Shown one piece after another: positions 32,222 through 58,700 of a DNA stretch of 64,000 nucleotides. Numbering within the stretch: position 1 is the stretch's first letter; every line of letters begins with the position of its first letter. A program made the position numbers and the translations under genes. The notes under the pieces were generated by a model. It saw only the letters and a list, made by a program, of their open reading frames with translations, made no database searches and was not told the DNA's origin. The DNA comes from an uncultured Acidobacteriota bacterium (lineage in GTDB: Bacteria; Acidobacteriota; Thermoanaerobaculia; Multivoradales; UBA5704), in assembly GCA_963770895.1 (NCBI GenBank), contig CAVYRF010000002.1:416001-480000 (forward strand), given 5' to 3'.

Positions 32222-33760
32222 TCAGCCCGGCGCGGGCGTGCGGCGGATGGTGTCGGCGAGGATGAGGCCGTCGCGGCGCGGCTGCCATTCGACGTTGTCG
32301 CGGGCGCCGAAGATGACGGACGGAGAATAGAGCGGCACAAAAGCCAGGTCGTCCATCAGCACGCGCATCGAGCGCTCCAGCTGGGTCCGGCGGGCCAGCA
32401 GGTCCAAGGTGCTGCCGCTCTCCTCGATCATGGTGTCGAGCGCCGGGTTGGCGTAGTGGTTGAAGTTGTTGGCGCCGTATCCGCGCCGCGGATCGCGGCT
32501 GTGCACCATCGAATCGAAAAAATCGCTGGCGTCCCCCGACAGGCAGAACCAGCCGCCAAAGTAGAACTCCACGTCGCCGGCCAGGATGCGCGGGAACAGC
32601 CGCACCCACTGCTGCTCTTCGGGGTGCAGGCGGATGCCGGCGGCGCGCAGCTGGCGCTCGACGGCGGCAACCTCGCCGGCGCGCCCCTGGCGGAAGGTGA
32701 CCAGCAGGTCGATGCCATCCGGATGGCCGGCCGCGCTCAGCAGCGCGCGCGCCGCCGCCGCGTCGGCGGCGGGGGGCAGGATGTCCGGCGCGAACCCGAA
32801 TACGTTGCGCCCCACCATCTGGCCCACCGGCACCCCCTCGCCGTAGAGCGCGGCGCCCACCAGGGCGCGGCGGTCCAGCGCCAGGTAGATCGCCCGCCGC
32901 ACGCGCACGTCGGAAAACGGCGGCAGATCGCGGCGCAGCACGAAGAACGTGACGCCCAGGCTGTCCTGGCGGATGACCCGGCAGCCGCGGCCGGCGACGA
33001 TGCGCCGCACGTTTTCGGGGCCGGGCTCCTGCACGATGTCGACGTCGCCGGCGAGCAGCCGCTGGATGCGGACGCCGACGTCGGCGACCGGCAGGAAGTC
33101 CACCTGCGGTTCGAACGGGGCGCCGCCCCAATAGCCGGGATTGGCCACCATGCTGAGACGCTTGCCGGGCTGGTAGGCGGCCAGGCGATACGGCCCGGTA
33201 CCCACCGGCTGGCGGATCTCGCTGGGCGCTCCCGCCGGCACGATGAAGATGAACGCCAGCTTGTTGAGCAGGATGGGATAGGGGCGCCGGGTCGTGATCT
33301 GGACGGTATGGGCGTCCAGGGCGGTGATGCGGTCGATGGCGACCAGGTAGCCGCCGACGTTGCTGCGCTGCGCGTCGCGGGCGCAGTCGAAGCTGAACAG
33401 CACGTCGCGGGCGGTGAACTCGCTGCCGTCGTGGAAGTGGACGCCGCGCCGCAGGTGGAAGATCCAGGTCAGCTCGTTGGGGTTCTCCCAGCTCTCCGCC
33501 AGGGCCGGCCCGACCTTGGTGCCGGCGTCGAAGGCGGTCAGCGCCTCATAGATGTTGCGCAGGACGGAAAAGGTGAGCAGCTCGTTGCGCAGGTACGGGT
33601 CCAGCGTCAACGGATCGGCATACAGCGCGATGCGCAGCGGCCGCCGCGGCGCCGCGGGCACGCTCGGCGACGGCTTGGCGCAGCCGCCCGCCAGCGCTAT
33701 CAGCGCCGCTATCGCCGCCATCGCCACTTTTGGCGCCATCGCGAGTCGTCGCCTCATCAC
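32222..33760 (-). CDS. Family-5 (peptide/nickel) ABC substrate-binding lipoprotein
   Basis: Lipobox-like LAGGC; LDP, PALAESW, LRRGVHFHDG, PVGTGPY, DVRVRRAI. Confidence 0.9.
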   Translation of the reverse strand: MMRRRLAMAPKVAMAAIAALIALAGGCAKPSPSVPAAPRRPLRIALYADPLTLDPYLRNELLTFSVLRNIYEALTAFDAGTKVGPALAESWENPNELTWIFHLRRGVHFHDGSEFTARDVLFSFDCARDAQRSNVGGYLVAIDRITALDAHTVQITTRRPYPILLNKLAFIFIVPAGAPSEIRQPVGTGPYRLAAYQPGKRLSMVANPGYWGGAPFEPQVDFLPVADVGVRIQRLLAGDVDIVQEPGPENVRRIVAGRGCRVIRQDSLGVTFFVLRRDLPPFSDVRVRRAIYLALDRRALVGAALYGEGVPVGQMVGRNVFGFAPDILPPAADAAAARALLSAAGHPDGIDLLVTFRQGRAGEVAAVERQLRAAGIRLHPEEQQWVRLFPRILAGDVEFYFGGWFCLSGDASDFFDSMVHSRDPRRGYGANNFNHYANPALDTMIEESGSTLDLLARRTQLERSMRVLMDDLAFVPLYSPSVIFGARDNVEWQPRRDGLILADTIRRTPAPG

Positions 33761-33845: not shown

Positions 33846-35426
33846 TCAGCCGTGGTCGATCAGCGCCATGACGATGCGGTCCTGCGCCTGGCGGGCTTCG
33901 CCCGTCGAGCGGGTGCGGTTGAGCAGGACCGAAAAGGCGTAGGTCTTGCCCGACACGGCGCGGGCGTAGCCGGAGAGAGCCGAAACGCCGTCGATCGTGC
34001 CGGTCTTGGCGAACACGTTGCCGCGGTAGGGCGGCAGCGTCATGCGTCCGTGCAGCGACCCATCCTCGTCTCCTGAGCCGGGCAGCGACTGCACGAACTC
34101 CGCCCCCCACTGGTGGTAGTACATGTGGCGCAGCAGCTGGGTGGTGGCGCGCGGCGTGAAGCGGTTCTGGCGGCTGAGCCCCGAGCCGTCGACCATGTGG
34201 AAGGCGCCGGCCGGCACGCCCAGGCCGACCAGAAATTCGCCCACCGCCCGCACGCCCTCGCTCCACGACCCTTCGCCGCAGCGGCGGGCGCCGACCAGCT
34301 TGAGCAGGCTCTCGGCATAGTAGTTCTGGCTGCGCTTGTTGGCGGTGCGCACGCTGTCGAGCAGGCTGCTGCGGTAGGCCGCGACGCGCTCCCACACCGG
34401 CCCCGGCAGGCGCTCGACCGGCCGCAGCTGGCCGCGCACCTCGATGCCCTCTTCGGCCAGCGCCTGCACCAGGCCGAGCCCGAAGTAGCGCACCGCGTCG
34501 GGCACGGTGACCCACTCTTCGAGCGGCCCCGAGTTGCGGAAGATGCTGCCGGTGACGACCAGCACGTCGTCGCGGCGCACGATGGTCAGGTGGTTGTTGC
34601 GCGGCGACGCGGAGGTGCGGGCGCTGGATTCGACGTGCAGCACCGGCACCGGCGGCACGATCTCGACGCGCGCCGCGCCGCCGCGCTGGCTGGGCCAGAC
34701 CCGCACCAGCACGCAGCTGTCGTTGAACGACAGCGCGGCGATCGGCGCCTCGTACCAGCTGGCGAGCTGGCCGCGCGGCCAGTCGGGGTGGACCTGGCGG
34801 GCCTCGAACAGCCCGTCGTCCAGGTAGAGGTCGCCCGCGATGCGGCGCACGCCGCGCGCCGCCAGGTCGTGCGCCCAGCCGCGAAAGACGGCAAACGAAT
34901 CGCCGTCGAAGGCGCGGCCTGAAATGTTGGGATCGCCCGCGCCGACGACGCCCAGGTCGCCGTGCAGCTCGCCGTCCTGCACCACGCCGCGCAGCAGCAG
35001 GCGGGTTTCATACAGATACCCGGGGCCGAACGCGTCCAGCGCGGCGGCGGTGGTGAACAGCTTGGTGTTCGAAGCGGTGACCCGCTCCTCGTCGCCGTTG
35101 TAGGTGTAGACGGTGTCGCCGCTCGCCAGGTCCACCACATTCACTCCGAGCGCCGAGGTGTCGCGCATCGCCCTGCCCACCTCCAGGCCGACCGCCTGCT
35201 GCAGCGGCGTGGCGCCCACCGCCGGCACACCGACCGCCTGTGCCGGCGCGTCCTGGTGCCGCGGATGGCGCGGGCGCGCGGCGGCAGCGGCGGCGCTGGC
35301 GGCGGCCGGCCCGCCGCCGGGCAGCAGGGCGGCGACCAGCCAGGCGGCGACCCACGCCGCCAGCGGCCGCCGCGCGCCGGCGAGCCCGGTGGTGGCGAGC
35401 CGGATGGCGGCGGCGAGGCGCCTCAT
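33846..35426 (-). CDS. dacB: D-alanyl-D-alanine carboxypeptidase/endopeptidase (PBP4, peptidase S13)
   Basis: ASNTKL (SxxK), GAGDP, SQN, DGSGLSRQN, AKTGT. Confidence 0.92.
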   Translation of the reverse strand: MRRLAAAIRLATTGLAGARRPLAAWVAAWLVAALLPGGGPAAASAAAAAARPRHPRHQDAPAQAVGVPAVGATPLQQAVGLEVGRAMRDTSALGVNVVDLASGDTVYTYNGDEERVTASNTKLFTTAAALDAFGPGYLYETRLLLRGVVQDGELHGDLGVVGAGDPNISGRAFDGDSFAVFRGWAHDLAARGVRRIAGDLYLDDGLFEARQVHPDWPRGQLASWYEAPIAALSFNDSCVLVRVWPSQRGGAARVEIVPPVPVLHVESSARTSASPRNNHLTIVRRDDVLVVTGSIFRNSGPLEEWVTVPDAVRYFGLGLVQALAEEGIEVRGQLRPVERLPGPVWERVAAYRSSLLDSVRTANKRSQNYYAESLLKLVGARRCGEGSWSEGVRAVGEFLVGLGVPAGAFHMVDGSGLSRQNRFTPRATTQLLRHMYYHQWGAEFVQSLPGSGDEDGSLHGRMTLPPYRGNVFAKTGTIDGVSALSGYARAVSGKTYAFSVLLNRTRSTGEARQAQDRIVMALIDHG

Positions 35427-37471
35427 GGGTGCGCCGCCGGCGGCGCGACCGCGGGCGTGGCGCCGGCGCCGCGCACCAGGTAGGTGTCGAACCAGCGGGT
35501 GATGGCCGCGGCGGAGCGGATGCGATTGGCGGTCTTGCGGAAGCCGTGCCCTTCGTCCGCGAACAGCACGTACTCGACCGGCACGCCGCGTCGCTTGAGC
35601 GCGTCGACCACCTGCTCGGCTTCGACGACCGGCACGTTGGTGTCGTTGGCGCCGTGCAGCACCAGGGTGGGAGCGATGACGCGATCCAGCTTGTAGATCG
35701 GCGACAGCGACCGCAGCAGCTCGCGCTGCGTGTCGGGATCGCCATACTCCACCTTGGACACCGCCGCCATCCACGGCTCGGTGTGGGCAAAAAAGGTTTC
35801 GAAGTTGACGATGCCGTACAGGTCGGCGCCGGCGGCGAACAGGTCGGGGAACTCGGTCAGCCCCGCCATGGTCATGTAGCCGCCGTAGGAGCCGCCCATG
35901 ATGCCCAACCGGTGCGGGTCGGCGATCCGTTCGCGCACCAGGTATTCGGCGGCGGCGCGGATGTCGGCCACCGCGCCGGTGCGCAGGGCGCCGTTGTCCA
36001 GGTTGACGAAGCGCTTGCCGAAACCCGACGAGCCGCGCACGTTGGGGGCGAGGACGCCGATGCCGCGCGCCAGGAGCGCCTGGTAGAGGGGGTTGAAACC
36101 GGGGCGCTCCTGGCTTTCCGGCCCGCCATGAAAGCTGAGCACGAACGCTCCCGGCGGCGGCGCCGCCGCCATCGCCCCGCGTCCGCCGCCGCGCACCGGC
36201 GCCACCTGAGGTCGATAGAGCCAACCGGTCAGCGGCAGGCCGTCGAGCGCCGCAAAGCGCACCAGCTCGGGCGCCACCAGCGCCGCCGGATCGACGCCGG
36301 GATGCGGCGCGTGGGTGAGCTGGCGCAGGTGCCCCGAGGCACGGTCCAGGATCCACACGTCGCGCGGCTGGCGCGAACCGACCAGGGTGAGCGCCAGCAG
36401 GCGGCCGTTGTGCGAAAAGGCCATGCCGTCGACGATTTCAGCCGGGAGCGCCGGCGCCGGCTCCTGGGCGAGCGTCGCCAGGTCCAGGAAGGCGAGCTGC
36501 GAGCGGCCGGCGACGTTCCACAGCAGCGCCGCGGTGTGGCCGTCCTCGGTGACGCGGAAGCTGTCCAGCTCGGCGTCGTCGCGCGCCGCGATCGGCTCGA
36601 CGGCGGACGCCGCCACGGCGCCGCCGGCGTCGCGGCTCAAGCGCACGCGGGCCAGCACGGAGCGGTCGCTGTCCTTGTTGGAGGTGAGATAGACCGTCGC
36701 GCCGTCGGGCGCAAAGACCGCGCCGCCGAACGAGGCGGGCGGCGTGTGAGGGGTGAGCAGGGTTTCGCGGCCGCTCGCCAGCTCGACCAGCGAGACGTCT
36801 TCGTCTCCCCGCTGCCGCACCCGCGAGATCAACGCGTAGCGGCCGTCGCGGCTGACGTCCCCGAGCGACCCGACGCCGCCGCCGGCGGCGAGCCGGCGCC
36901 AGCCGCCGCTGGCCGGGTCGTAGGTGTAGGGGTCGAGCGACGCGGCACCGGCGCGCGTCGAGCTGAGCAGCAGCAGACGCCCGTCGTGACTGAAACCGTC
37001 CAGCGTGTTGTTGACCTTGCCGCCGTCGGTCACCCGCGCCAGCTGCCTGCCGTCGGGGCGCATCAGGTAGACCTGCGTGTTCATGCCGCCCCCCGGAGCC
37101 ACGCTGAGCGCCAGCGAGCCGCCTTCCGGCGACCACTCCACCCCGCCCACCGGGTCGGCGAAGCCGGTCAGCTGCTCGGGCCAGCCGCCGTCCACCGGCA
37201 CCGTCCACACTTCCGGCACACCGCTCAAGTTGGACACGAACGCCAGGCGCAGCCCGTCCGGCGAAAAGCTGGGCGACCAGCAGCCCCCCACCCCGGCCAG
37301 GCGCGCCACCTCCCGCTCCAGCTCGCCGTCGCCGTCCGGCGCGGCGATGACGGCAGCCGCGGCGGTGCCGGCCGCGGGCGCCGGTGCCGCCGCCAGGCCG
37401 GGCCGCAGCGCCAGCAGAGGGAGCGCGGCCGTCCAGGCCAGGGTGCGCAGAAGCGGAAAGGGGAAGGTCAT
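35423..37471 (-). CDS. S9 family (prolyl oligopeptidase/acylaminoacyl) peptidase with beta-propeller, secreted
   Basis: HGGPE, NVRGSSGFG, GGSYGG, HGANDTNV, DEGHG; WSPEG/FSPDG propeller repeats; AGGAG RBS. Confidence 0.92.
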   Translation of the reverse strand: MTFPFPLLRTLAWTAALPLLALRPGLAAAPAPAAGTAAAAVIAAPDGDGELEREVARLAGVGGCWSPSFSPDGLRLAFVSNLSGVPEVWTVPVDGGWPEQLTGFADPVGGVEWSPEGGSLALSVAPGGGMNTQVYLMRPDGRQLARVTDGGKVNNTLDGFSHDGRLLLLSSTRAGAASLDPYTYDPASGGWRRLAAGGGVGSLGDVSRDGRYALISRVRQRGDEDVSLVELASGRETLLTPHTPPASFGGAVFAPDGATVYLTSNKDSDRSVLARVRLSRDAGGAVAASAVEPIAARDDAELDSFRVTEDGHTAALLWNVAGRSQLAFLDLATLAQEPAPALPAEIVDGMAFSHNGRLLALTLVGSRQPRDVWILDRASGHLRQLTHAPHPGVDPAALVAPELVRFAALDGLPLTGWLYRPQVAPVRGGGRGAMAAAPPPGAFVLSFHGGPESQERPGFNPLYQALLARGIGVLAPNVRGSSGFGKRFVNLDNGALRTGAVADIRAAAEYLVRERIADPHRLGIMGGSYGGYMTMAGLTEFPDLFAAGADLYGIVNFETFFAHTEPWMAAVSKVEYGDPDTQRELLRSLSPIYKLDRVIAPTLVLHGANDTNVPVVEAEQVVDALKRRGVPVEYVLFADEGHGFRKTANRIRSAAAITRWFDTYLVRGAGATPAVAPPAAHP

Positions 37472-50352: not shown

Positions 50353-50672
50353 CCAGGCGGTTGCGGGCCGACCCCGTTAAGTCATTCTGCTTGTTCGTTT
50401 TAACGCCGGCGCTCGGCATCCGCCGGTACCCCCGCGGGGGACCACGGAAGCTGGCGCGCACCATGCAGTAGTCGCCGCCGGGCTGCACATTGGTCAGTCA
50501 CCCCGGCAAGGGATCGGCGGCGCTGTCGCGCGAAGCAACGACGCGACAGCGCGCTCAGGGGAGCCGGGTGATTGCCTCCCGGCACTTCGCAGGGGCCACG
50601 CATAGATATTGGCGCATAACGCCAAATGTGAACAGAACTATGCTTGGCGCTTTTTCACTTAGGAGCTTTTCG

Positions 50673-52556
50673 ATGCATGAGTCCGCTCACCGACTCGGCG
50701 AGACCGCGGCCCACACCGGGCAGGCGCGCCCCGCTCTCCTCCTCGTCCTCTTCACCATGTTTTACGCCTTCACGCTCGGCGCTGCCGTGCGCCCTGCCCA
50801 GGCCGCCTCGGCCGCGGAAACCGACGCCCAGCCGGCGCTGCCGCTGGCGCAGGCGGCGCCCGCCGGCCAGATGGTCAAGGCGCCTGACATGGTGAGCGAC
50901 GCCGAGGTGCTGCGCTTCACCGACGATCTGGTCCCCACCCTGCTCAAGGTCGCCGCGGGCAAGAAAGTGCGCATCGCCGACTGGCCGGTGGCGCCGGGGG
51001 TCCGCCAGGACGTGCTGATCACCCGCCACCAGATCTACGCTCCCGGCGCCCACATCCTGCTGGTCGACGCCGCCGGCACCCACGAGGTGCCGCGCTCGCG
51101 CCTGGCCTTCTTCTGGGGGGTCGAGGCGGACAACGGCACGGTCGGCCTGTCGGTGGCGGTCGATCCCGCGACCGGCACGATCGAGGGCCTGACGCAGACC
51201 GGCTCCGGCATGTTCCAGCTGCGCCAGGTGGAGGGGCGGCCGGGCACCTACCTGCTGGCCGGCACCGAGGCGACGCGCGTCGGCGCCGGGCTGCCGGCCA
51301 GGCCGGCATGGCACTGCGGCGAAGAAACCCTGGTGCCGCTGCCGCGGCCGCCGGTGACGACCGAGGACCGGGATGCCGCGACGGCCCGCAACGCCCAGGC
51401 GCTGCAGGCCGCGGCAGCCATGCCCGGCGCCACCGTCCAGGGCGGCGCCAGCTACAACATGGCGACCGTCGCCTTCGACACCGACAACGAATTCATGGCC
51501 AAGTTCAGCAACAACACCACGACCACCGCCAACTACATCGCCAGCCTGGTGGCCGCCACCAACGTCATGTACGAGCGCGACCTGGGCGTCGAGCTGCTGG
51601 TCGGCACCACCTACCTGCGCACCACCTCCGACCCCTACTCCGCGGAGCCCGACCCGGACGCCAACGCCGCCCAGCTGAGCGAATTCACCAACTACTGGAG
51701 CAGCAACTACGGCACCGTCGCGCGCACCGTCGCGGCCCTCCTCTCCGGCAAGGAGACCGACGGCGCCCTGTCCGGCATCGCCTGGATCTCGGGGCTGTGC
51801 AGCACCTCCTACGGCTACAGCGTCAACGACCTGATGGGCACCGGCTACATCGATTACGACCAGCTGATCCTGGGCCACGAGCTGGGCCACAACTTCGGCA
51901 CCAATCACACCCACTGCTACAACCCGCCGATCGACACCTGCTACAACCAGCAGAGCGGCTGCTACGACGGAGCCGCCACCAGCTGTCCCGCGGTGACCAC
52001 GCTCAACGGCGTCACCGGCGTCACCGGCACGATGATGAGCTACTGCGACCTGCTGGGCAGCTGCGGCGTATCGATGGTCTTCCATCCGCGCGTGGTGGCG
52101 GTGATCAAGCCCGAGGTCACCTCGGCGCTCGGCGTCTGCATGACCGCCGGCAGCGGCGGCACCACCGGCAGCGGCAGCGGCACCGCTTTCTACACCGCCA
52201 CCCCCTGCCGGATCGTCGATACCCGCACCGCCACCGGACCCGAAGGCGGACCGAACCTGTCCGCCGGCCAGCAGCGGGTGTTCCAGATCACCGGCCAGTG
52301 CGGCATTCCCACCGGCGCGACCGCCGTGTCGGTCAACGCCACGGTGATCGGCGGCACGACCGGCGGTTCGATCAATCTCTTCGCCGGCAACGGCAGCTCG
52401 ACCGGCACCAACACCGTCAGCTTCGGCGCCGGCCAGGTGCGCGCCAACAACGCCGTCGTGCAGCTGGCAAGCGACGGCTCGGGCACCCTGGCGGTGCTCA
52501 ATTCCGCCAGCGCCACGACCCAGTTCGTGCTGGACGTGAACGGCTACTTCAAATAG
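50673..52556 (+). CDS. Secreted reprolysin/M12-like metzincin protease with a C-terminal FYTxTPCRIVDTR domain
   Basis: Hydrophobic leader; prodomain ending in WHCG (cysteine-switch-like); DTDNEF, GIAWISGLC, HELGHNFGTNH, TMMSYC; ends LDVNGYFK; AGGAG RBS. Confidence 0.87.
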   Translation: MHESAHRLGETAAHTGQARPALLLVLFTMFYAFTLGAAVRPAQAASAAETDAQPALPLAQAAPAGQMVKAPDMVSDAEVLRFTDDLVPTLLKVAAGKKVRIADWPVAPGVRQDVLITRHQIYAPGAHILLVDAAGTHEVPRSRLAFFWGVEADNGTVGLSVAVDPATGTIEGLTQTGSGMFQLRQVEGRPGTYLLAGTEATRVGAGLPARPAWHCGEETLVPLPRPPVTTEDRDAATARNAQALQAAAAMPGATVQGGASYNMATVAFDTDNEFMAKFSNNTTTTANYIASLVAATNVMYERDLGVELLVGTTYLRTTSDPYSAEPDPDANAAQLSEFTNYWSSNYGTVARTVAALLSGKETDGALSGIAWISGLCSTSYGYSVNDLMGTGYIDYDQLILGHELGHNFGTNHTHCYNPPIDTCYNQQSGCYDGAATSCPAVTTLNGVTGVTGTMMSYCDLLGSCGVSMVFHPRVVAVIKPEVTSALGVCMTAGSGGTTGSGSGTAFYTATPCRIVDTRTATGPEGGPNLSAGQQRVFQITGQCGIPTGATAVSVNATVIGGTTGGSINLFAGNGSSTGTNTVSFGAGQVRANNAVVQLASDGSGTLAVLNSASATTQFVLDVNGYFK

Positions 52557-52561
52557 CCAGC

Positions 52562-52596
52562 CTGCTGCCCGGCTGGCGCCCCCGGCCGGGCAGCAG
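52562..52596 (+). terminator. GC-rich hairpin just after the protease stop codon
   Basis: 12-bp perfect stem CTGCTGCCCGGC...GCCGGGCAGCAG; no clear U tract. Confidence 0.45.
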
Positions 52597-52799
52597 TGTG
52601 TCGCCATTCAGGCACCTGGACGGAGCGGTGGGTTCGCCCTCCTGGAGACTGGCACGCCGGCGCCATGCCGGCCACGGCAAACTGTGTTAATTTTCGGGCC
52701 GTGAGCGCTGGCAGTCGCCGGCGCTCACCCGCACCGCCAAACGATTTCCGGTACTCCGATCCAACGCTCTTCTCCCTACCCCTGCCTGCTTCGATCGCA

Positions 52800-53795
52800 A
52801 TGCCCGATCCGGTTCCCGCCCTCGCCGTGTCCGGCCCTGCCACCGCGCCGCTCACCGGCGCGCCGCACGCCGGCACCGTCGCCGTGCGCTGCCGCAACCT
52901 GGTCAAGCGTTACGAAGACGTGGTGGCGGTGGCGGGCCTGGACCTCGAAGTGCAGAGCGGCGAATGCTTCGGCCTGCTCGGTCCCAACGGCGCCGGCAAG
53001 ACCACGACGCTGGAGATCCTGGAAGGGCTCACCACCCCCGACGACGGTCAGGTGGAGGTCCTGGGCACCAGCTGGACAAAGGGCAACGGCCACGCTTTGC
53101 GCCAGCGGCTGGGGCTCGCTTTGCAGGAAACCCAGCTGAGCACCAAGCTGACGGTGATCGAAACGCTGCGCCTGTTCCGCTCCTTCTATAGCCGCGGCAA
53201 GGCGCCCGAAGACGTGATGGACCGCCTGTCGCTGCGCGAAAAGCGCGACGCGCCGGTGGGCAAGCTCTCCGGCGGCCAGAAGCAGCGCCTGGCGGTGGCA
53301 TGCGCCCTGGTGGGCGACCCCGAGCTGCTGTTTCTCGACGAGCCCACGACCGGCCTCGACCCGCAAAGCCGCCTCGAGCTGTGGGAGCAGATCAGCCAGT
53401 TCCGCGCCGGCGGCGGCACCGTCGTCCTGACCACTCACTACATGGACGAAGCCGAACGTCTGTGCGACCGGGTGGCGATCGTCGACCACGGCAGGGTCAT
53501 CGCCCAGGACACGCCGCAGGAGCTGATCGCTTCTCTCAAGGCCGCCAACGTGGTGGAATTTGCCGCCACGCCCGAGCTGCCGCGCGAAACCCTGGCGCAG
53601 ATCGAGGGCGTCGGCGAGATCCACCGCCACGGCGCGGTCTGGGCGCTCTCCGTCGTGTCGCTCGCCGCCAGCGTGCCGGCGCTGCTCGCCGCCGTGGAGC
53701 GAGCGGGCGCCCGCCTCGAACAGCTTTCGACCCACCGCGCGACGCTCGAAGACGTCTTCGTCGCGCTGACCGGCCGCGCCCTGCGCGAGGAGTGA
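52800..53795 (+). CDS. ABC-2 exporter ATP-binding protein
   Basis: GPNGAGKTT, LSGGQKQR, LDEPTTGLD, TTHYMDEAE. Start uncertain (GTG at 52701 also possible). Confidence 0.92.
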   Translation: MPDPVPALAVSGPATAPLTGAPHAGTVAVRCRNLVKRYEDVVAVAGLDLEVQSGECFGLLGPNGAGKTTTLEILEGLTTPDDGQVEVLGTSWTKGNGHALRQRLGLALQETQLSTKLTVIETLRLFRSFYSRGKAPEDVMDRLSLREKRDAPVGKLSGGQKQRLAVACALVGDPELLFLDEPTTGLDPQSRLELWEQISQFRAGGGTVVLTTHYMDEAERLCDRVAIVDHGRVIAQDTPQELIASLKAANVVEFAATPELPRETLAQIEGVGEIHRHGAVWALSVVSLAASVPALLAAVERAGARLEQLSTHRATLEDVFVALTGRALREE

Positions 53796-53822
53796 CGCGG
53801 CGCCAGCGCGAGCCACATCGCC

Positions 53823-54911
53823 ATGTCCAGCGATCGTCCCAACCCCCTGTGGCAGCTCACCCTCACCCGGGTGCGCGAATTCATCCGCGAGCCCGAGGCG
53901 CTGTTCTGGGTCTTCGCCTTCCCGATCCTGCTCGCCGTGGCGCTCGGCCTGGCGTTCCGCGAAAAGCCTCCCGACCGCATCCCGGTGGGCGTCGTAGAGA
54001 CCGGCGGGGCCGCCGCTGCCGGGGGTGGTGCCGGCGCCTCCGACCCCGCCGCCGCTGCCGTCGCGGCGCTCGCGCGGTCCCCCGTGCTGCTGCCGCGCCT
54101 GCTGGCGAGCGGCGAAGCGCAAGAGGCGCTGCGCACCGGCAGGATCTCGCTGCTGATCCAGCCCGGCGCCGCCGGCCAGCCGCCGGTCTTTCGCTTCGAC
54201 GAGACGCGCCCCGAATCGCGCATCGCGCGGCTGGAAGCCGACGACGCGCTGGAGCGTGCCGCCGGCCGCGGCGACCGGCTGGCCATCCGCACCGAGCGCC
54301 TGACCGCCAAGGGATCGCGCTACATCGACTTCCTGATCCCCGGCCTGCTCGGCATGAACCTCATGGGCACCGGCATCTGGAGCCTGGCGTTCAACATCTC
54401 CATCGCGCGGCAAAAGCAGCTGCTCAAACGGCTGATCGCGACGCCGATGCGGCGCACCCACTACCTGCTGGCGCAGATCCTGGGGCGGCTGGTGTTCCTG
54501 CTGCCCGAAATGGTCTTCCTGGTCGGCTGCGGCTGGGTGCTCTTCGGCGTCGGCGTGCGCGGCCCTCTGTGGCTGCTGTTTCTGACCTGCCTGCTGGGGG
54601 CGATGACCTTCTGCGGCCTGGGGCTGCTGGTGGCGTCGCGGGTGCGCACCCCCGAGGGAGCCAGCGGCTGGGCAAACCTGGTGATGATCCCGATGTGGCT
54701 GGCTTCGGGAGTGTTCTTTTCGTCCGAGCGCTTCCCCGACCGGCTGCAGCCGTTGATCAAGGCGCTGCCGCTGACCGCTCTCAACGATGCGCTGCGCGGC
54801 ATCATGAACGAGGGGTGGGGGCTGTCGCAGGTTGCATCCCGGCTGGCGATCCTTGCCGCCTGGGGCGTGGCCACCTACCTGGTGGCGCTCGGGGTGTTTC
54901 GCTGGCGCTAG
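53823..54911 (+). CDS. ABC-2 exporter permease
   Basis: REPEALFWVFAFP, RYIDFLIPG, LKRLIATP, SGVFF, LPLTALNDALR. Confidence 0.9.
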   Translation: MSSDRPNPLWQLTLTRVREFIREPEALFWVFAFPILLAVALGLAFREKPPDRIPVGVVETGGAAAAGGGAGASDPAAAAVAALARSPVLLPRLLASGEAQEALRTGRISLLIQPGAAGQPPVFRFDETRPESRIARLEADDALERAAGRGDRLAIRTERLTAKGSRYIDFLIPGLLGMNLMGTGIWSLAFNISIARQKQLLKRLIATPMRRTHYLLAQILGRLVFLLPEMVFLVGCGWVLFGVGVRGPLWLLFLTCLLGAMTFCGLGLLVASRVRTPEGASGWANLVMIPMWLASGVFFSSERFPDRLQPLIKALPLTALNDALRGIMNEGWGLSQVASRLAILAAWGVATYLVALGVFRWR

Positions 54912-55075
54912 TGGCCTGTCCTGTTCGAATCGAAAGCGCCTGGCTTGCCCTCGACGGCGGGGGCTTCGTTCCGCCTCCTCGACATAGTTCCGACTATGCC
55001 TGCGTCGGCGCGCTTGGCCCCCGCCGCCGAATGGCGGCGCCATCCGCTTTCGATTTCTCCAGGACAGGCCACTAG
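54908..55075 (-). mobile_element. MITE/REP-like element copy 2 (intact, ~168 bp, CTAG at both ends)
   Basis: Perfect 20-bp inverted repeat 54904-54923/55060-55079 (GGCGCTAGTGGCCTGTCCTG); inner pair AATCGAAAGCG/CGCTTTCGATT; the left CTAG contains the permease TAG stop. Confidence 0.8.
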
Positions 55076-55153
55076 CGCCCCGTTCGCTTCCTTCACCTGC
55101 TTTTCGCCAAAAAGGGCTGGATTGCCAGACCCGTTGCAATGTAGAATAGAACT

Positions 55154-55732
55154 ATGGCCTCTGACCAAGGTGATCGCATCATCTCGTTGTTGCGGAACGC
55201 GATTCGGCTGTCGAGTCGTACCTATCGGGATGTGGAACGCCAGCTGGGCTGGCGGGCGGGTACCATCACGCGCCTGATGCGCGGCGGGCTCGGGCTGAAG
55301 ATCGAGCATCTGCTTAGCATTCTGCGCGCGATCAAGCTCTCCCCGGCCCGCTTCTTCGCCGTGGCGTACCCCAGCGCGGACGGCGTGCCGTCGGCTGAAG
55401 AGCGTCTATACCGCATCCTGGAACAGATGTACTCGCGCGGCGGCAGCGGCGGCGGCAACGCCATCGCCCCGGGCGTGATCAGCGCCATCGCCGCTCTGGG
55501 CGCCAGCGGGGCTAACGGCTCGCACGGCGCCGGCGGCGAAGAGCTGCCGCGCGCGGCGCTGCAACAGGCCCTGCCGGCCATGCCTCAGGCATCGTCCAGC
55601 GTGGAACACGCCGCGACGACGCAGGATGAGATCGATGAGATGGTAAGGATCTCACTGCGCAAGCTGCTCGGCACCAGCAGCCCGGACCTGCGCGTGTCGC
55701 GCGCCCGGCCCGGCGGCGCGACGGCCGAATAA
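55154..55732 (+). CDS. XRE-like HTH DNA-binding protein, probably leaderless
   Basis: LLRNAIRLSSRTYRDVERQLGWRAGTITRLMRG..GLKIEHLLSIL.AI.LSPARFF; TAGAAT (55142-55147) lies 6 nt before the ATG and there is no RBS. Confidence 0.78.
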   Translation: MASDQGDRIISLLRNAIRLSSRTYRDVERQLGWRAGTITRLMRGGLGLKIEHLLSILRAIKLSPARFFAVAYPSADGVPSAEERLYRILEQMYSRGGSGGGNAIAPGVISAIAALGASGANGSHGAGGEELPRAALQQALPAMPQASSSVEHAATTQDEIDEMVRISLRKLLGTSSPDLRVSRARPGGATAE

Positions 55733-55750
55733 CCGGCGCGCTCTTTCAGC

Positions 55751-57418
55751 TCACGCTGAGCGGGCGGAGCGCCCGAGCTGCTCGTCGGGCGCTGCCGAGG
55801 TGAGCAGCTGCTGGATCGCGTCGACCAGCTGCACCGTGCCCAACGACGACCGCTGCAAGGTCGTTTCCAACACTTCCATGGCGTCCAGCGCCTCGGCGGT
55901 CACGTCCAGGGCGCGGAACAGCTGCGACACCTCGAGCGCCAGGGCCCGCGCCTGGTCTTCCTGACCGCGCCGCAGCTCCAGCTGTGCCAGGTCCATGGTG
56001 GCGCGCGCGTAGCACTTCCTGTCGCCCGCTTCCTTCAGTTGCTGGCGCACGTCCGCGAAGGCCCGCTCGGCGCGCGCGAAATCAGCCAGGCCTGAATAGA
56101 TCTGGGCCTGCAGCCAGCGCAGCTTCAGGCGGTCCTGGCGGCCGCCGTGCTGCTCGTACAGCCCCAGATGGCGCCACAGCAGCGACCGCGCCTCCCGGTG
56201 GCGGCCGCCCGCCATCAGGCACCAGGCGGTGTTGTGGACGGCGGCGATGGTCAGCTCGGGGTCGTGATCGGGGCCGACCATTTCGAGCCCTTCGTTGAGC
56301 AGCTCGGCGGCCTCCTGGTGGCGCCCCTCGAACGAGGTGTACAACCCCTTCTTGATCAGGCAGCGCCCCGCCAGGTACGGATCGCCGTAGCGGCGGTAGA
56401 TGCGCAGCGCGATCTCCAGCGACGCGAAGGCGGCGCCGGTGTGATGGCGGTCGAAGCACAGGTTGGCTTCCACCTCCAGGAAGCGGGCTCCCAGCAGGCG
56501 GTCGTGACCGGCCTCGCGGAAGTGTCCCCGCACCAGGTCCATGCAGGCTTCGGCGTCCTTCAGGCGGTCGACCACGCGCAGGGCGTTGGCCAGCTCGATC
56601 GTCGCCCTGGCCCGGAAATCGCGCACCTGGCCGGCGCTGAAGCCCTGGTCTCCCAGCGACGCGGCGACCGCGGCAGCGATCTCGGCCAGCTTGACCATCT
56701 GCCTGGGATTGCGGCGGCGCAAGGCCCAGCTCTGCTCCAGCAGCAGCTCGAACCCGGCCAGCGACTGCAGCTCGGGCGGCGGCTCCTGGAGGTCTTCCAC
56801 GCCGCTCGCGATCAGCTGATCGAGCAGACTGCGCGCCTTGCCGATGTCCCGCGCCGCGTTCTCGCCATGCCGCACTACCGCGGCGAAGGCGCGGTCGATG
56901 GCCTGGTCGTAGGCGCTGTCGGAGAACGTGACGCCGGGATGGAGCGGCGCGCGGGCAGCGCGCTTGCGGCGCCGCCGCGCCGTCTCGCCGGCGGGGCCGG
57001 CCGGGACGGCACCCGTCGCCGCAGCCCCGGCGGCGTCCCCAGATCCATCGCCCGACGACCCATCCGACATCGTCGCATCCGCGGCCCGCACCGGCCTTGC
57101 CGATCGCGCAACCGGTCCGCCGGCGGGGGGGCCGGCCGCGTCGCCAGCGGCAGGCGGAGCATCGTGCCTGCCCGACGCGGCAGCCACCAGTGCGGCAAAG
57201 GCCGCGATGTCGTCGCCAGGATCGAGCTCCAGCGTCAGGTCGGACGCGAGCGGCGCGAGGACGGGGCCGTCCAGCAGCGTTGCCGCGTAGGGGGCGACCC
57301 GCGCCACGCAGGTCGGGCAGCCGCGCAACAGGTGACGCACGACCGCTTTCGCCTGCTCACGGCTGAGGGTGCCGCACACCAGCCCCTCGAGGTCGGCGGC
57401 GGTTGGATGCTCCATCAT
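55751..57418 (-). CDS. Protein with N-terminal anti-sigma-like zinc-finger (H..HxxxxCxxC) and C-terminal TPR-like repeats
   Basis: HPTAADLEGLVCGTLSREQAKAVVRHLLRGCPTC; helical repeats ELANALRV..RLKDAE, IKKGLY..EGRHQEAAELL, HNTAWCL..GRHREA; GGAGG RBS before ATG 57418. Confidence 0.8.
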   Translation of the reverse strand: MMEHPTAADLEGLVCGTLSREQAKAVVRHLLRGCPTCVARVAPYAATLLDGPVLAPLASDLTLELDPGDDIAAFAALVAAASGRHDAPPAAGDAAGPPAGGPVARSARPVRAADATMSDGSSGDGSGDAAGAAATGAVPAGPAGETARRRRKRAARAPLHPGVTFSDSAYDQAIDRAFAAVVRHGENAARDIGKARSLLDQLIASGVEDLQEPPPELQSLAGFELLLEQSWALRRRNPRQMVKLAEIAAAVAASLGDQGFSAGQVRDFRARATIELANALRVVDRLKDAEACMDLVRGHFREAGHDRLLGARFLEVEANLCFDRHHTGAAFASLEIALRIYRRYGDPYLAGRCLIKKGLYTSFEGRHQEAAELLNEGLEMVGPDHDPELTIAAVHNTAWCLMAGGRHREARSLLWRHLGLYEQHGGRQDRLKLRWLQAQIYSGLADFARAERAFADVRQQLKEAGDRKCYARATMDLAQLELRRGQEDQARALALEVSQLFRALDVTAEALDAMEVLETTLQRSSLGTVQLVDAIQQLLTSAAPDEQLGRSARSA

Positions 57419-57473
57419 TTTGGCGTCCTCCGCTGTCACAAGCCTACATCAATCGCGCCCAAAGCGGTACCTG

Positions 57474-57496
57474 TAGTGGGTCAACCTGACCCACTA
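57474..57496. promoter_or_regulatory. Perfect palindrome TAGTGGGTCA-ACC-TGACCCACTA (candidate operator)
   Basis: 10-bp perfect arms with a 3-nt spacer, ~55 bp upstream of the TPR gene start. Confidence 0.7.
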
Positions 57497-57629
57497 TCCG
57501 GACATTCCCGCGCATTTTCAGCACATTCATCCCCGCTGCCACGCCAGCGCCATCGCCGCCCGCCACCCGGCGCGGCGGCAGCGGCCGGCGCAACGCCAGC
57601 AGGCCCCTGCGGGAAGAAAGGAAGAATAT

Positions 57630-57932
57630 CTAGCCGTCAGGATTGATGGTCGAGCTGTCGGACGGTCCGGAGGTCGAACCGCTGTCCGCGGTGCTTTGAC
57701 CCGCGGTCACCACACCGTGATGTCCGGACGCCGGCGCCGCCGGCCGCGCGCCGCCGCTGCCCAGGATGAGGTCCACCATCCGGTGCCACAGCGATGACGC
57801 CCACGACCGGCCGTCTTCGTGCACCGCCGCCGGCGCCCCTGCCGCGGCATGCGCCCCGACCGGAGCGGCGAACGACAGCATCGCAACCAGGGCAAGCGCC
57901 GCCACGATTCGCACAACCATGCACTGCTTCAT
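57630..57932 (-). CDS. Small secreted protein (100 aa) ending ...DSSTINPDG; candidate signalling pre-peptide
   Basis: Strong RBS GAGGAGAGGA before ATG 57932; Sec signal MKQCMVVRIVAALALVAMLSFAAPVGAHA; amphipathic SWASSLWHRMVDLILG; polar C-terminal tail. Confidence 0.75.
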   Translation of the reverse strand: MKQCMVVRIVAALALVAMLSFAAPVGAHAAAGAPAAVHEDGRSWASSLWHRMVDLILGSGGARPAAPASGHHGVVTAGQSTADSGSTSGPSDSSTINPDG

Positions 57933-58091
57933 GCGCAATCCTCTCCTCGGGCCGACGCTCTGCCGCAAGCTGACCGCACCGGCACATGGATAATCCCTTG
58001 GCCCAATAGACGCAGTGCGGCGGCGGGCCGCTTTCGAGCCACCGGCTGCAACGCAGACTGGATGGGTTGCGGAGTTGGCCGGTGCCGATCG

Positions 58092-58700
58092 CTACAGCGA
58101 ACGCACCATGGCGACGATGCCGGCGCGAATCATCGACACGGAGATGGCCGCGAGGAACAGGCTGGCGACCTTGGCGACGCCGCGGTTGACCGAAGGGCCG
58201 ATGATCTTCGCCACCAGCGGACCCGAAACGAAGACCAGGAAGACCAGGCTCATGTTGAGGATGAGCGAAACCAGCGTGGGCACGTAGCCGAAGGCCTCGC
58301 GCGATACCAGGATCGAGGTGATCGCGGCCGGTCCCATGATCAGCGGGATACCCAGCGGCACCACCCCGACGCTGTCCGCGGCGTCGCCGTCGCCGGCGGC
58401 GGGGTCGCGGCGCCGGTAGTCGCCGAAGATGAGGTTGGAGATGCTCAGCACCAGCAGGATGAGCCCGCCGCCGACGCGCAGGTCGTTCACCGTGATGCCC
58501 AGCAGGGAAAAGATGAGCTGGCCGGCAAACAGGATCAGCACCGCCACCAGAAAGGCAGTGGCCACCGCCTGCAAGGTCAAGCGTCGCCGCTCGGCATTGG
58601 ACAGCACCTCGGTGATGCCCAGGTACAGCGGCAGGATGCCGGGCGCGTTGATCGCCACGAACAGGGGCACGAAGCTTTCGATGTAGTCGCGCGAGATCAT
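58092..58700 (-). CDS. MarC family membrane protein
   Basis: FVPLFVAINAPG, LRVGGGLILL, VVPLGIPLIMGPAAI. Confidence 0.9.
   Translation of the reverse strand: MISRDYIESFVPLFVAINAPGILPLYLGITEVLSNAERRRLTLQAVATAFLVAVLILFAGQLIFSLLGITVNDLRVGGGLILLVLSISNLIFGDYRRRDPAAGDGDAADSVGVVPLGIPLIMGPAAITSILVSREAFGYVPTLVSLILNMSLVFLVFVSGPLVAKIIGPSVNRGVAKVASLFLAAISVSMIRAGIVAMVRSL

Follow-up and report, generated by a model that had tools for sequence, protein, structure and literature searches.

Peptide-responsive TPR receptors and the locus under study

The RRNPP (or RRNPPA) systems, in which an imported peptide acts on an internal receptor, include Rap–Phr, NprR–NprX, PlcR–PapR, PrgX, Rgg–SHP, ComR–XIP and AimR–AimP. 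Their common layout is a small gene for a Sec-type propeptide beside the gene for a cytoplasmic receptor made of tetratricopeptide repeats (TPRs). A locus with the same layout lies in a 64,000-nucleotide stretch of DNA, hereafter called the window, from an uncultured diderm bacterium of the phylum Acidobacteriota, class Thermoanaerobaculia. The host genome comprises 8.16 Mb at 71% GC on 3 contigs, and the window corresponds to G000:C2:416001–480000. Three genes make up the locus: a precursor peptide gene (57630–57932, minus strand), a receptor gene (55751–57439, minus strand) and a gene for a stand-alone XRE-type helix-turn-helix (HTH) protein (55154–55732, plus strand), which converges on the receptor gene with 18 nt between the two stop codons. 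We put at about 0.55 the probability that this locus is a cognate propeptide/receptor signalling cassette, RRNPP-like in operation, built from unrelated families and housed in a diderm. A preliminary description of the same DNA had interpreted it as a peptide-signalling module; every element that it named was found in its place by a check of the open reading frames (ORFs) and of the sequence, and its interpretation is supported by the computations reported below.

In the accessible parts of two sources, RRNPP systems are treated as a Gram-positive or Firmicutes trait (PMC10075063; PMC9765709), and the accessible part of a third describes tandemly duplicated propeptides (PMC11343458). A full-text literature search, in which subscription journals were barely covered, found none in Acidobacteriota and, more generally, no RRNPP-like system from hosts other than Gram-positive bacteria and their mobile elements. 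The likeness of the present system to the RRNPP families extends beyond gene layout. The conserved part of the peptide is at or near the C-terminus, the genome holds many diverged paralogous pairs, some precursors contain several cores, an XRE HTH is fused to the TPR domain in about 16 paralogs, and the nearest bacterial structural neighbours of the receptor are RapI, Phi3T Rap, RapJ, NprR and RapF (Z 19.9–21.8). The differences are equally clear. There is no detectable sequence relationship, and the host belongs to a diderm Acidobacteriota lineage, so that re-import of a peptide would cross two membranes. The focal receptor has a zinc-type three-helix domain where RRNPP members other than Rap have an XRE-type HTH, and the peptide family, with its G-x-x-I-[DN]-P-[ND]-G core and a tryptophan-containing W-motif, is new to Pfam and NCBIfam. 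The system is RRNPP-like in its proposed operation, yet it lacks the sequence homology and the taxonomic placement of that group.

The nearest functional analogue of the proposed pairing of a zinc-type TPR protein with a stand-alone HTH protein is Rap of plasmid pLS20, which, according to the accessible parts of PMC7430634 and PMC7641744, is a peptide-responsive anti-repressor acting on the repressor Rco. As is proposed here for the focal receptor, this TPR protein has no DNA-binding domain of its own, and an imported peptide switches its action on a separate transcription factor. It has an N-terminal helix bundle in place of the HHCC three-helix domain of the focal receptor and belongs to another family and phylum, and the HTH contact in the present system is a proposed one.

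For the N-terminal domain, the closest comparison is with the zinc-binding anti-sigma (ZAS) factors ChrR, RslA and RsrA, which likewise begin with a three-helix domain in which one His is distant from an H...C-x-x-C cluster. RslA has been solved with sigma region 4, which is itself an HTH, and one paralog of the focal receptor (locus L152, below) is encoded directly downstream of an extracytoplasmic function (ECF) sigma ORF with a 4-bp overlap. The spacing differs, being H-x4-C-x2-C in the focal receptor and H-x3-C-x2-C in the ZAS factors; the neighbour of the focal receptor is an XRE HTH protein and not a sigma factor, and its sensor is a cytoplasmic TPR domain instead of a cupin or periplasmic domain.

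The precursor peptide

The precursor gene encodes 100 amino acids and starts with an ATG that has a Shine–Dalgarno (SD)-like sequence, GGAGAGGA, at 57939–57946, 7 nt upstream. Its GC content at third codon positions (GC3) is 0.82, compared to 0.53–0.67 in the spurious frames that overlap it. The protein begins with an n-region containing K2 and R8, followed by a hydrophobic core and then by A27-H28-A29, the likely signal-peptidase site. This Sec-type signal peptide (residues 1–29; 57846–57932, minus strand) was judged by reading of the sequence and by hydropathy, the Kyte–Doolittle 19-residue maximum of 2.39 being like that of membrane-protein controls, and both A27 and A29 are invariant in the alignment of orthologues (alignment A2). 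After the signal peptide comes an amphipathic W-motif, W44-A-S-S-L-W49-H-R-M (57777–57803, minus strand), in which W49 never varies in A2 and W44 is conserved to at least 90%, and then a low-complexity linker rich in Gly, Ser, Pro and Ala.

The C-terminus of the precursor reads ...DSGSTSGPSDSSTINPDG (last residues SDSSTINPDG). Residues 88–100, SGPSDSSTINPDG (57633–57671, minus strand), which include the conserved core INPDG, form the predicted receptor-binding end, as judged from the contacts in the complex model described below and from conservation of the core. In alignment A2, every sequence has I96, P98, G100 and the residue A2, and conservation of N97 and D99 is 90% or higher.

No family in Pfam or NCBIfam matched the precursor. 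Orthologues were found in six genomes of the same genus, with weaker matches in other genera. When the sequence was searched against its own genome, it retrieved, besides itself, one weak match at C2:4323259 (E 8e-4 / 0.006), and a word-indexed protein search returned three proteins, its own entry included. The nearest clusters in the ESM Atlas were unnamed Acidobacteriota proteins of 90–96 amino acids, which we regard as a lead only. Because homology search fails on these peptides, the genome was scanned by motif first.

Peptide genes beside TPR receptors throughout the genome

The genome contains 39 ORFs with the TPR domain of the focal receptor as identified by phmmer (42 matches in another search). 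Every stop-to-stop frame of at least 30 amino acids was scanned for the core motif within its last 20 residues. The strict motif, [ILMV][DN]P[DNW]G, occurred in 11 frames, 9 of which had one of the 39 TPR ORFs no more than 1 kb away; the relaxed motif, [DN]P[DNSW]G, occurred in 77 frames, 18 of which were as close. Five scrambled or substituted control motifs were found near TPR ORFs in 0/2, 0/3, 0/8, 1/12 and 0/7 cases (1/32 in total). Approximately 1.74% of the genome is within reach of a TPR ORF, corresponding to binomial P values of 8e-15 for the strict and 1e-15 for the relaxed motif, and the peptide–TPR arrangement is far beyond chance expectation.

Curation yielded 18 peptide genes beside TPR paralogs, all of which have an ATG start, an SD-like GGAG/AGGA site and a signal peptide. 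Their GC3 ranges from 0.66 to 0.88, and the third is the codon position with the highest GC content in 15 of them. Searches of all 18 peptides against Pfam and NCBIfam gave no family and only chance low-complexity matches (Collagen; CefA, E 0.093). A curated peptide gene lies within 1 kb of 26 of the 39 TPR ORFs, and some receptors have none.

Two classes of precursor can be distinguished. Class 1 precursors have a single core near the C-terminus, G-x-[ILM]-[DN]-P-[DN]-G followed by 0–4 residues, and their genes are usually upstream of a zinc-type receptor on the same strand. Class 2 precursors consist of two to four tandem units flanked by Cys, KPQNxC-x-x-DP[NDS]G-x(1-3)-C, each with a DPNG loop. 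Seven of the eight class 2 genes are on the opposite strand between two tandem genes for HTH-fused receptors (loci L063–L070, for example C2:3839137–3839592, C2:5556236–5556703 and C2:1901571–1901996). From the gene order, this layout looks like one multi-core signal common to two receptors.

Peptide and receptor families in other genomes

The order peptide–receptor–HTH is kept in four genomes of the same genus (G001, G003, G004 and G008), and it recurs on contig C714 of G022, a genome from a different genus. When homologues of the precursor were aligned, the signal peptide and a W-x-W-[IL]-x-x-L-W stretch were conserved, as was the I-[ND]-P-[DN]-G end, which is followed in some homologues by a QPPT-like tail. 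The linker between them varies from 0 to ~40 residues in length, and varies in sequence as well.

A scan with the receptor alignment, limited to one genome per species, gave 77 related loci, annotated as Thermoanaerobaculia, Thermoanaerobaculaceae, Thermoanaerobaculum sp., Acidobacteriota/Acidobacteria or Holophagales. The suggestion, offered in the preliminary description, that small secreted ORFs with such ends recur next to TPR genes in Thermoanaerobaculia is supported by the annotation of these loci and of the closest homologues of the receptor, which come from MAGs labelled 'Thermoanaerobaculia bacterium' or 'Acidobacteria bacterium'. Of the 71 related loci from metagenome-assembled genomes (MAGs) that have at least 600 bp of upstream sequence, 59 have a precursor gene upstream on the same strand, 34 of them identified by a first automatic rule and 25 by eye, in cases where the core was more remote from the end or the rule had overlooked the start codon. 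A second automatic rule placed a peptide gene at 54 of the 77 loci. The 12 of 71 loci without a peptide gene are L076–L079, L082, L105, L109, L130, L136, L138, L144 and L146, and the first five of these are orthologues of a paralog of the focal receptor that itself has no peptide gene. A convergent HTH gene was found within 600 bp at 27 of 73 related loci. The linkage of peptide and TPR genes beyond the focal locus, for which the preliminary description had called, is borne out both within the genome and across these MAGs.

A logo of the core was compiled from 98 cores in 71 precursors, in which P and the final G were set by the search pattern and positions −4 and −1 were not. Position −4 is G in 79 of the 98 cores and position −1 is I in 61; position 0 is D (79) or N (19), and position +2 is N (59), D (35) or S (4). 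Most precursors contain one core (50), others two (14), three (4) or four (2), so that 20 of the 71 are multi-core precursors; one has no core under a stricter pattern. After the last core there is a tail of 0–4 residues in 44 of 70 precursors and of 6–51 residues in the other 26. The W-motif is present in 57 of the 71, placed 10–25 residues past the signal-peptidase site. The motif that had been noticed at the end of the focal precursor is hence conserved among homologues, next to a hypervariable linker, and it is C-terminal in the focal precursor itself; elsewhere, it is not always at the C-terminus and is often repeated.

A precursor profile was built from 39 of 72 sequences, taken from class 1 and free of over-extended starts, and searched against 1.84 billion representative proteins. 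At least 2364 representative proteins (50%-identity clusters) matched at E <= 1e-3, and 220 did so at E <= 1e-10. Among the best 150 matches, 145 hold a core and 140 are no longer than 135 amino acids; the cores in these best matches have G at −4 in 296 of 306 cases and are followed by R or K in 88 of 306. Two of the matches, P0115 and P0196, are large secreted proteins of 783 and 731 aa, respectively, in which ~40 tandem G-x-x-[ILMV]-DP[ND]G-[KR] units are placed between two other domains.

The receptor domain was found in all 24 searched genomes of the same taxonomic family, with at least 14–48 matches each, and with 0–21 matches per genome in other families of the same order; up to 48 candidates were scored in each genome. 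Among 301 sampled Acidobacteriota genomes, a strict first look at E <= 1e-20 located it in at least five, all of which belong to this order.

The receptor and its zinc-type N-terminal domain

Read from a GTG at 57439, the receptor ORF encodes 562 amino acids, and this numbering is used throughout. The true start is probably the ATG at 57418, which is favoured by a GGAGGA sequence upstream and by agreement with a 555-aa database entry (P0004). The protein consists of a zinc-ribbon-like N-domain, a disordered linker and a TPR solenoid, as indicated by Pfam, by its homologues and by a structure model. TPR_12 matched over three stretches with 42.7 bits, above the Pfam cut-off of 30.1 bits. The TPR region also gave a weak match to the profile of the NsdA family in NCBIfam (NF053720; E 2.8e-9), which at 37 bits is far below the 75-bit cut-off. 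NsdA-family regulators are not known to have a peptide partner.

The structure model was built from 32 sequences, comprising the window protein and 31 of its 50 homologues; the entry identical to the window protein, the short homologues and some others were left out. The mean predicted local distance difference test (pLDDT) score was 78.8, with ~80 for residues 10–55, very low values for the linker (residues 56–172) and >90 for residues 175–550. The latter form some 8–9 helix pairs, and this TPR superhelix (residues ~175–550; 55790–56917, minus strand) contains the predicted peptide groove, lined by N285, R288, K363, H402, N403, W442 and L443.

No transmembrane segment was detected in the receptor, its Kyte–Doolittle maximum being 1.15; the 31 homologues reach at most 1.66, compared to 2.2–2.6 for membrane controls. 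Since the focal protein has neither a signal peptide nor a transmembrane segment, and the 31 homologues have no transmembrane segment either, the receptor is taken to be cytoplasmic. We had also considered a membrane-anchored anti-sigma factor with a periplasmic TPR sensor, which would need no peptide import, and this is ruled out by the missing hydrophobic segment.

The N-terminal domain (57272–57415, minus strand) is anti-sigma-domain-like, with H11, H36, C41 and C44 invariant in all 39 aligned N-termini. The anti-sigma-like zinc motif that had been read from the sequence is to that extent real, although its spacing is H-x4-C-x2-C in the focal receptor and most paralogs, and Pfam zf-HC2 (PF13490) matched one N-terminus out of six (E 0.088), with 13.4 bits where the cut-off is 22.2 bits. 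When modelled in isolation from 39 sequences, the domain formed a three-helix unit with a pLDDT of 75. The top nine rows of a Foldseek search with this unit were ChrR (2q1z, 2z2s) and RslA (3hug), with TMq 0.55–0.60 and 28–30% identity. The E values of 0.6–2.6 are not significant, and with the sub-threshold zf-HC2 match the anti-sigma likeness is therefore a lead and not an assignment of membership.

Structural comparison and predicted peptide binding

The overall best structural matches of the receptor solenoid are LGN/Pins and kinesin light chain (KLC), in which an extended peptide is wrapped in the inner groove. These are eukaryotic scaffolds that are functionally unrelated, and the match is one of fold type only. 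LGN/Pins scored E 9e-7 in Foldseek and Z 25.2–22.7 in VIA-align, and KLC1, also in the Foldseek list, scored ~Z 19 in VIA-align. Among bacterial proteins, RapI gave E 2.6e-4 in Foldseek and Z 21.8 in VIA-align (root-mean-square deviation 3.5 over 290 aligned residues), followed in VIA-align by Phi3T Rap with its pheromone (Z 20.7), RapJ–PhrC (Z 20.7; also in the Foldseek list), NprR (Z 20.1), RapF (Z 19.9) and Rap of pLS20 (6t3h; Z 18.2). Unrelated helical repeats score ~13 by this method, and the alignments with RapI, Phi3T Rap, RapJ and NprR cover 276–290 residues. A profile search of the PDB with the receptor returned only KLC1 and RapF, at E ~0.008, the latter over ~95 residues. In the model, then, the solenoid is of the peptide-binding type of TPR superhelix. 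Because LGN scores higher, the likeness to Rap and NprR is one of fold type and not of descent.

The complex was modelled with receptor residues 170–562 (alignment A1) and peptide residues 61–100 (alignment A2). The interface score, ipSAE, was 0.91 in three out of three runs, while the best of three controls, which did not include a scrambled or non-cognate peptide, scored 0.00. The ipSAE mark is reached by 116 of 157 solved complexes and by 2 of 215 mismatched pairs, a calibration that is rough here, since our own alignments were used. The runs have at least 55% of their contacts in common, and the confident contacts are confined to peptide residues 88–100, in the TPR groove. I96 packs on receptor residues 398–403 and 439, and D99 adjoins N285 and V289. 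The model thus predicts the contact between peptide and TPR domain that the preliminary description had suggested.

N285 and R288 are kept in all 62 receptor/peptide pairs. Of 36 paralogs (the 39 minus 3 fragments), 34 have R288, 32 have W442 and 31 have N285. At six loci (L098, L103, L111, L116, L119 and L132), the groove carries the variant M363/F367/Q402/S403, and the cores that accompany it are exclusively N-type (INPNG, INPDG, VNPDG). This pattern may reflect co-variation or a single clade, and we draw no claim from it.

Transcriptional partners of the receptor paralogs

The 39 TPR ORFs differ in their N-termini: 18 have an H-x(3,4)-C-x2-C motif, about 16 have a fused XRE HTH, and 5 are of undetermined type or fragments. 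All five of the fused paralogs that were tested scored above the cut-off for HTH_3 or HTH_31. The stand-alone focal HTH protein (192 aa), which was assigned by Pfam matches and a family alignment and has a conserved C-terminal helix (~55619–55669, plus strand), scored 18.7 bits on HTH_31 (E 0.002; cut-off 27 bits). At E <= 0.01, 15 of 18 members of its family match HTH_31 and 14 of 18 match HTH_3, the best with 6e-7.

A stand-alone HTH homologue adjoins eight TPR ORFs in seven loci and is convergent in all but one. ECF sigma genes adjoin three Zn-TPR cassettes; the focal locus has no sigma gene. Gene neighbours matching both outputs that had been offered as alternatives in the preliminary description, through an HTH protein or through an ECF sigma factor, occur in the genome. 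Its proposal that DNA binding resides on a separate protein may hold for the focal locus and does not extend to the about 16 paralogs in which the HTH is fused to the TPR domain, the classical RRNPP architecture. By Rosetta-stone reasoning, the fused paralogs argue for cooperation between the stand-alone HTH protein and the Zn-TPR protein. As far as gene arrangement can tell, one sensor domain appears to be wired to transcription in three ways: by a fused HTH, a separate HTH or an ECF sigma factor.

Individual cassettes illustrate this variety. Locus L152 (G000:C2:5716538–5719471) encodes, all on the minus strand, a peptide (2731–2934), an ECF sigma ORF (2013–2549) and a Zn-TPR protein (1–2016). 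Between the sigma and receptor ORFs there is a 4-bp overlap of the kind seen in sigma/anti-sigma operons, and the peptide gene is upstream of the sigma gene. Just upstream of L152 are two further ECF sigma genes (C2:5720392 and C2:5721106). The closest paralog of the focal receptor (C1_581289 with C1_580065; G000:C1:579420–582812) is found in a pair of tandem TPR genes with a convergent HTH gene. Another Zn-type TPR paralog, at G000:C1:659208–660668, is broken by an in-frame TAG and is probably a pseudogene.

In a survey of neighbouring genes, no other gene family, including any modifying enzyme, recurred around the 18 cassettes, which fits a two-gene module that relies on general export and import machinery. 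Genes for MacB_PCD and FtsX permeases are next to three cassettes (C1:1913517–1914758, C1:518845–521286 and C2:3743783–3746983), maybe by chance, since permeases of this kind could be common in the genome.

Proposed mechanism and points against it

We propose the following mechanism. The 100-aa precursor would be exported via Sec and cleaved after A29, and then trimmed outside the cytoplasm to a short peptide holding the ...G-x-x-I-[ND]-P-[DN]-G end. This peptide would re-enter the cytoplasm, for example via an Opp/Dpp-type importer, and bind in the concave groove of the TPR solenoid, a contact that is predicted by the complex model. As the receptor has no DNA-binding domain of its own, its HHCC three-helix domain would hold the neighbouring XRE HTH protein or, in a few paralogs, an ECF sigma factor instead. 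Binding of the peptide would alter the hold on the HTH protein and so switch transcription, with a sign and targets that we can only infer. At the focal locus, the output is probably through the separate HTH protein, bound by the anti-sigma-like zinc domain. The two-gene module, the many diverged pairs, the multi-core precursors, the fused paralogs, the cytoplasmic receptor and the presence of OppA-like genes all fit an RRNPP-like cassette.

Several findings weigh against this reading. Peptide and HTH genes occur together in only 7 of 68 related loci for which both flanks could be inspected, by an automatic count that preceded the identification of 25 peptide genes by eye. An HTH gene without a peptide gene is the arrangement at the focal receptor's closest paralog and at the orthologues of that paralog (L076–L079, L082), which may be orphan receptors responding to peptides from other sources. 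The conserved W-motif plays no part in the proposed mechanism. The giant proteins P0115 and P0196 raise the possibility that the core serves as a structural or metal-binding repeat; they may instead be precursors with many cores. The cassettes have no linked transporter or protease dedicated to them, and a peptide of ~1 kDa must cross the outer membrane twice. Searches of Pfam and NCBIfam showed no sequence homology of the receptor to the RRNPP families, and the likeness of the N-domain to anti-sigma domains is statistically weak.

The complex model has its own weak points. The pLDDT of the peptide partner was 45–48, under 50. The interface is not significantly more conserved than the remainder among orthologues (15/39 vs. 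91/354, odds ratio 1.8, p = 0.13), and among paralogs its conservation is only modestly higher (Mann–Whitney p = 0.023). The score is the model's own confidence, to which memory of the solved LGN, KLC and Rap–Phr complexes may contribute.

If the cassette reading is true, the RRNPP logic would have evolved convergently here. The system would also provide a testable handle on communication in an abundant, almost uncultured soil phylum, and a set of short orthogonal peptide/receptor pairs with modular outputs that would be useful for synthetic circuits. We suggest more tentatively, as a possibility, that soil Thermoanaerobaculia run a large peptide-pheromone system of one to several dozen orthogonal cassettes per genome, in which some precursors give rise to several copies or variants of the peptide and three outputs (fused XRE HTH, captured stand-alone HTH and captured ECF sigma) are interchangeable. 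Such a system would be the first RRNPP-type cell-to-cell signalling, by way of an imported peptide and an internal receptor, in a diderm phylum, and its origin would be independent of the Firmicute systems.

Alternative explanations

The linkage of the genes would also be expected if the TPR/HTH or TPR/sigma pair regulated the adjacent gene, and if the secreted product acted only outside the cell, as an antimicrobial, adhesive, Ca-binding or kin-recognition factor, and never bound the TPR domain. Regulators are commonly linked to their targets, and linkage alone cannot separate a ligand from a target. The ~40 tandem DPNG/DPDG units in P0115 and P0196 resemble a repeat with a structural or metal-binding role. 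Exporter permeases of the MacB type are found near three cassettes, and no importer is linked to any. We nevertheless consider this explanation unlikely. The complex model puts exactly the conserved core into the groove, with controls at 0.00, and the two groove residues N285 and R288 are kept in 62 out of 62 pairs, in which the core is invariant as well. In addition, the ~18 diverged cassettes have one precursor per receptor or receptor pair, which is the Rap–Phr-type pattern, and the precursors lack a folded domain, their conserved part being ~10 residues and a short helix.

It is less probable still that recognition takes place inside the cell, with the TPR domain binding the C-terminus of the unexported precursor as a secretion-feedback sensor or chaperone and with no cell-to-cell signal. 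Such a mechanism would be simpler in that it requires no outer-membrane crossing or re-import: the receptor is cytoplasmic, the precursor is synthesized in the same compartment, and the last 13 residues, which suffice for the predicted contact, are already part of the full-length precursor. Strong Sec signal peptides on all 18 precursors speak against it. The multi-core precursors and the basic residue that follows 88 of 306 cores point to extracellular cutting into several peptides, and the 26 of 70 precursors with 6–51 residues past the last core would have a free C-terminal core only after processing.

Sec signal peptides are not usual in the leaders of ribosomally synthesized and post-translationally modified peptides (RiPPs), and all 18 precursors carry one. 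We consider it very improbable that the peptides are precursors of RiPP-like natural products and the TPR proteins pathway regulators or recognition factors, even though the leader-then-core(s) layout and the repeated Cys-flanked cores of class 2 are reminiscent of such pathways. One precursor faintly matches a Cys-rich RiPP family in NCBIfam (CefA), but at 12.6 bits (E 0.093) it is far under the 30-bit cut-off, and no modifying enzyme or other family recurs around the cassettes.

Finally, long spurious ORFs abound in high-GC genomes and several overlap the focal locus, but the idea that the small ORF is a chance frame in 71% GC DNA with a coincidental motif is effectively refuted by the SD-like site, ATG and signal peptide in all 18 genes and the maximal GC3 in 15, by conservation of the gene across genomes with a purifying pattern on the core, by the 2364 representative homologues found by profile, and by linkage statistics that rule out coincidence.

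Surroundings and expression of the locus

The region from the peptide stop to the TPR start (57419–57629) is a candidate regulatory region on the ORF map. In a consensus scan, this region showed neither a sigma-70-like promoter nor a terminator; over 54900–58150 as a whole, the scan gave no promoter-like sites and two terminator-like sites (1.1 expected).

Directly upstream of the HTH gene, the window encodes a secreted M12B/reprolysin-like metallopeptidase (688 aa) and an ABC-2 exporter pair (50490–54911, plus strand). The ABC-2 transporter and the M12B-like peptidase were considered as parts of the module and rejected: their synteny is restricted to the orthologous loci of the genus, the ATPase, permease and M12B genes are present in 8, 6 and 2 of the 77 related loci, respectively, and none recurs among the 18 cassettes.

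The focal stretch is present in soil metagenomes. Among metatranscriptome contigs from two soil libraries of two studies, two map to the HTH gene (55176–55519 and 55234–55384), one covers the point at which the HTH and receptor genes meet at their 3′ ends (55523–55986, ~92% identity), and one maps to the receptor gene (56484–56702). No contig from these two libraries covers the peptide gene; the data are assembled contigs, in which carry-over of DNA is possible.

Two genes for OppA-like SBP_bac_5 proteins are present in the whole genome. The window contains a gene for an OppA/DppA-like solute-binding protein of this family (32222–33760, minus strand; E 9e-76), a candidate for peptide uptake, which is ~22 kb from the cassette and adjoins a gene of the S13 D-Ala-D-Ala carboxypeptidase family (33846–36356, minus strand).

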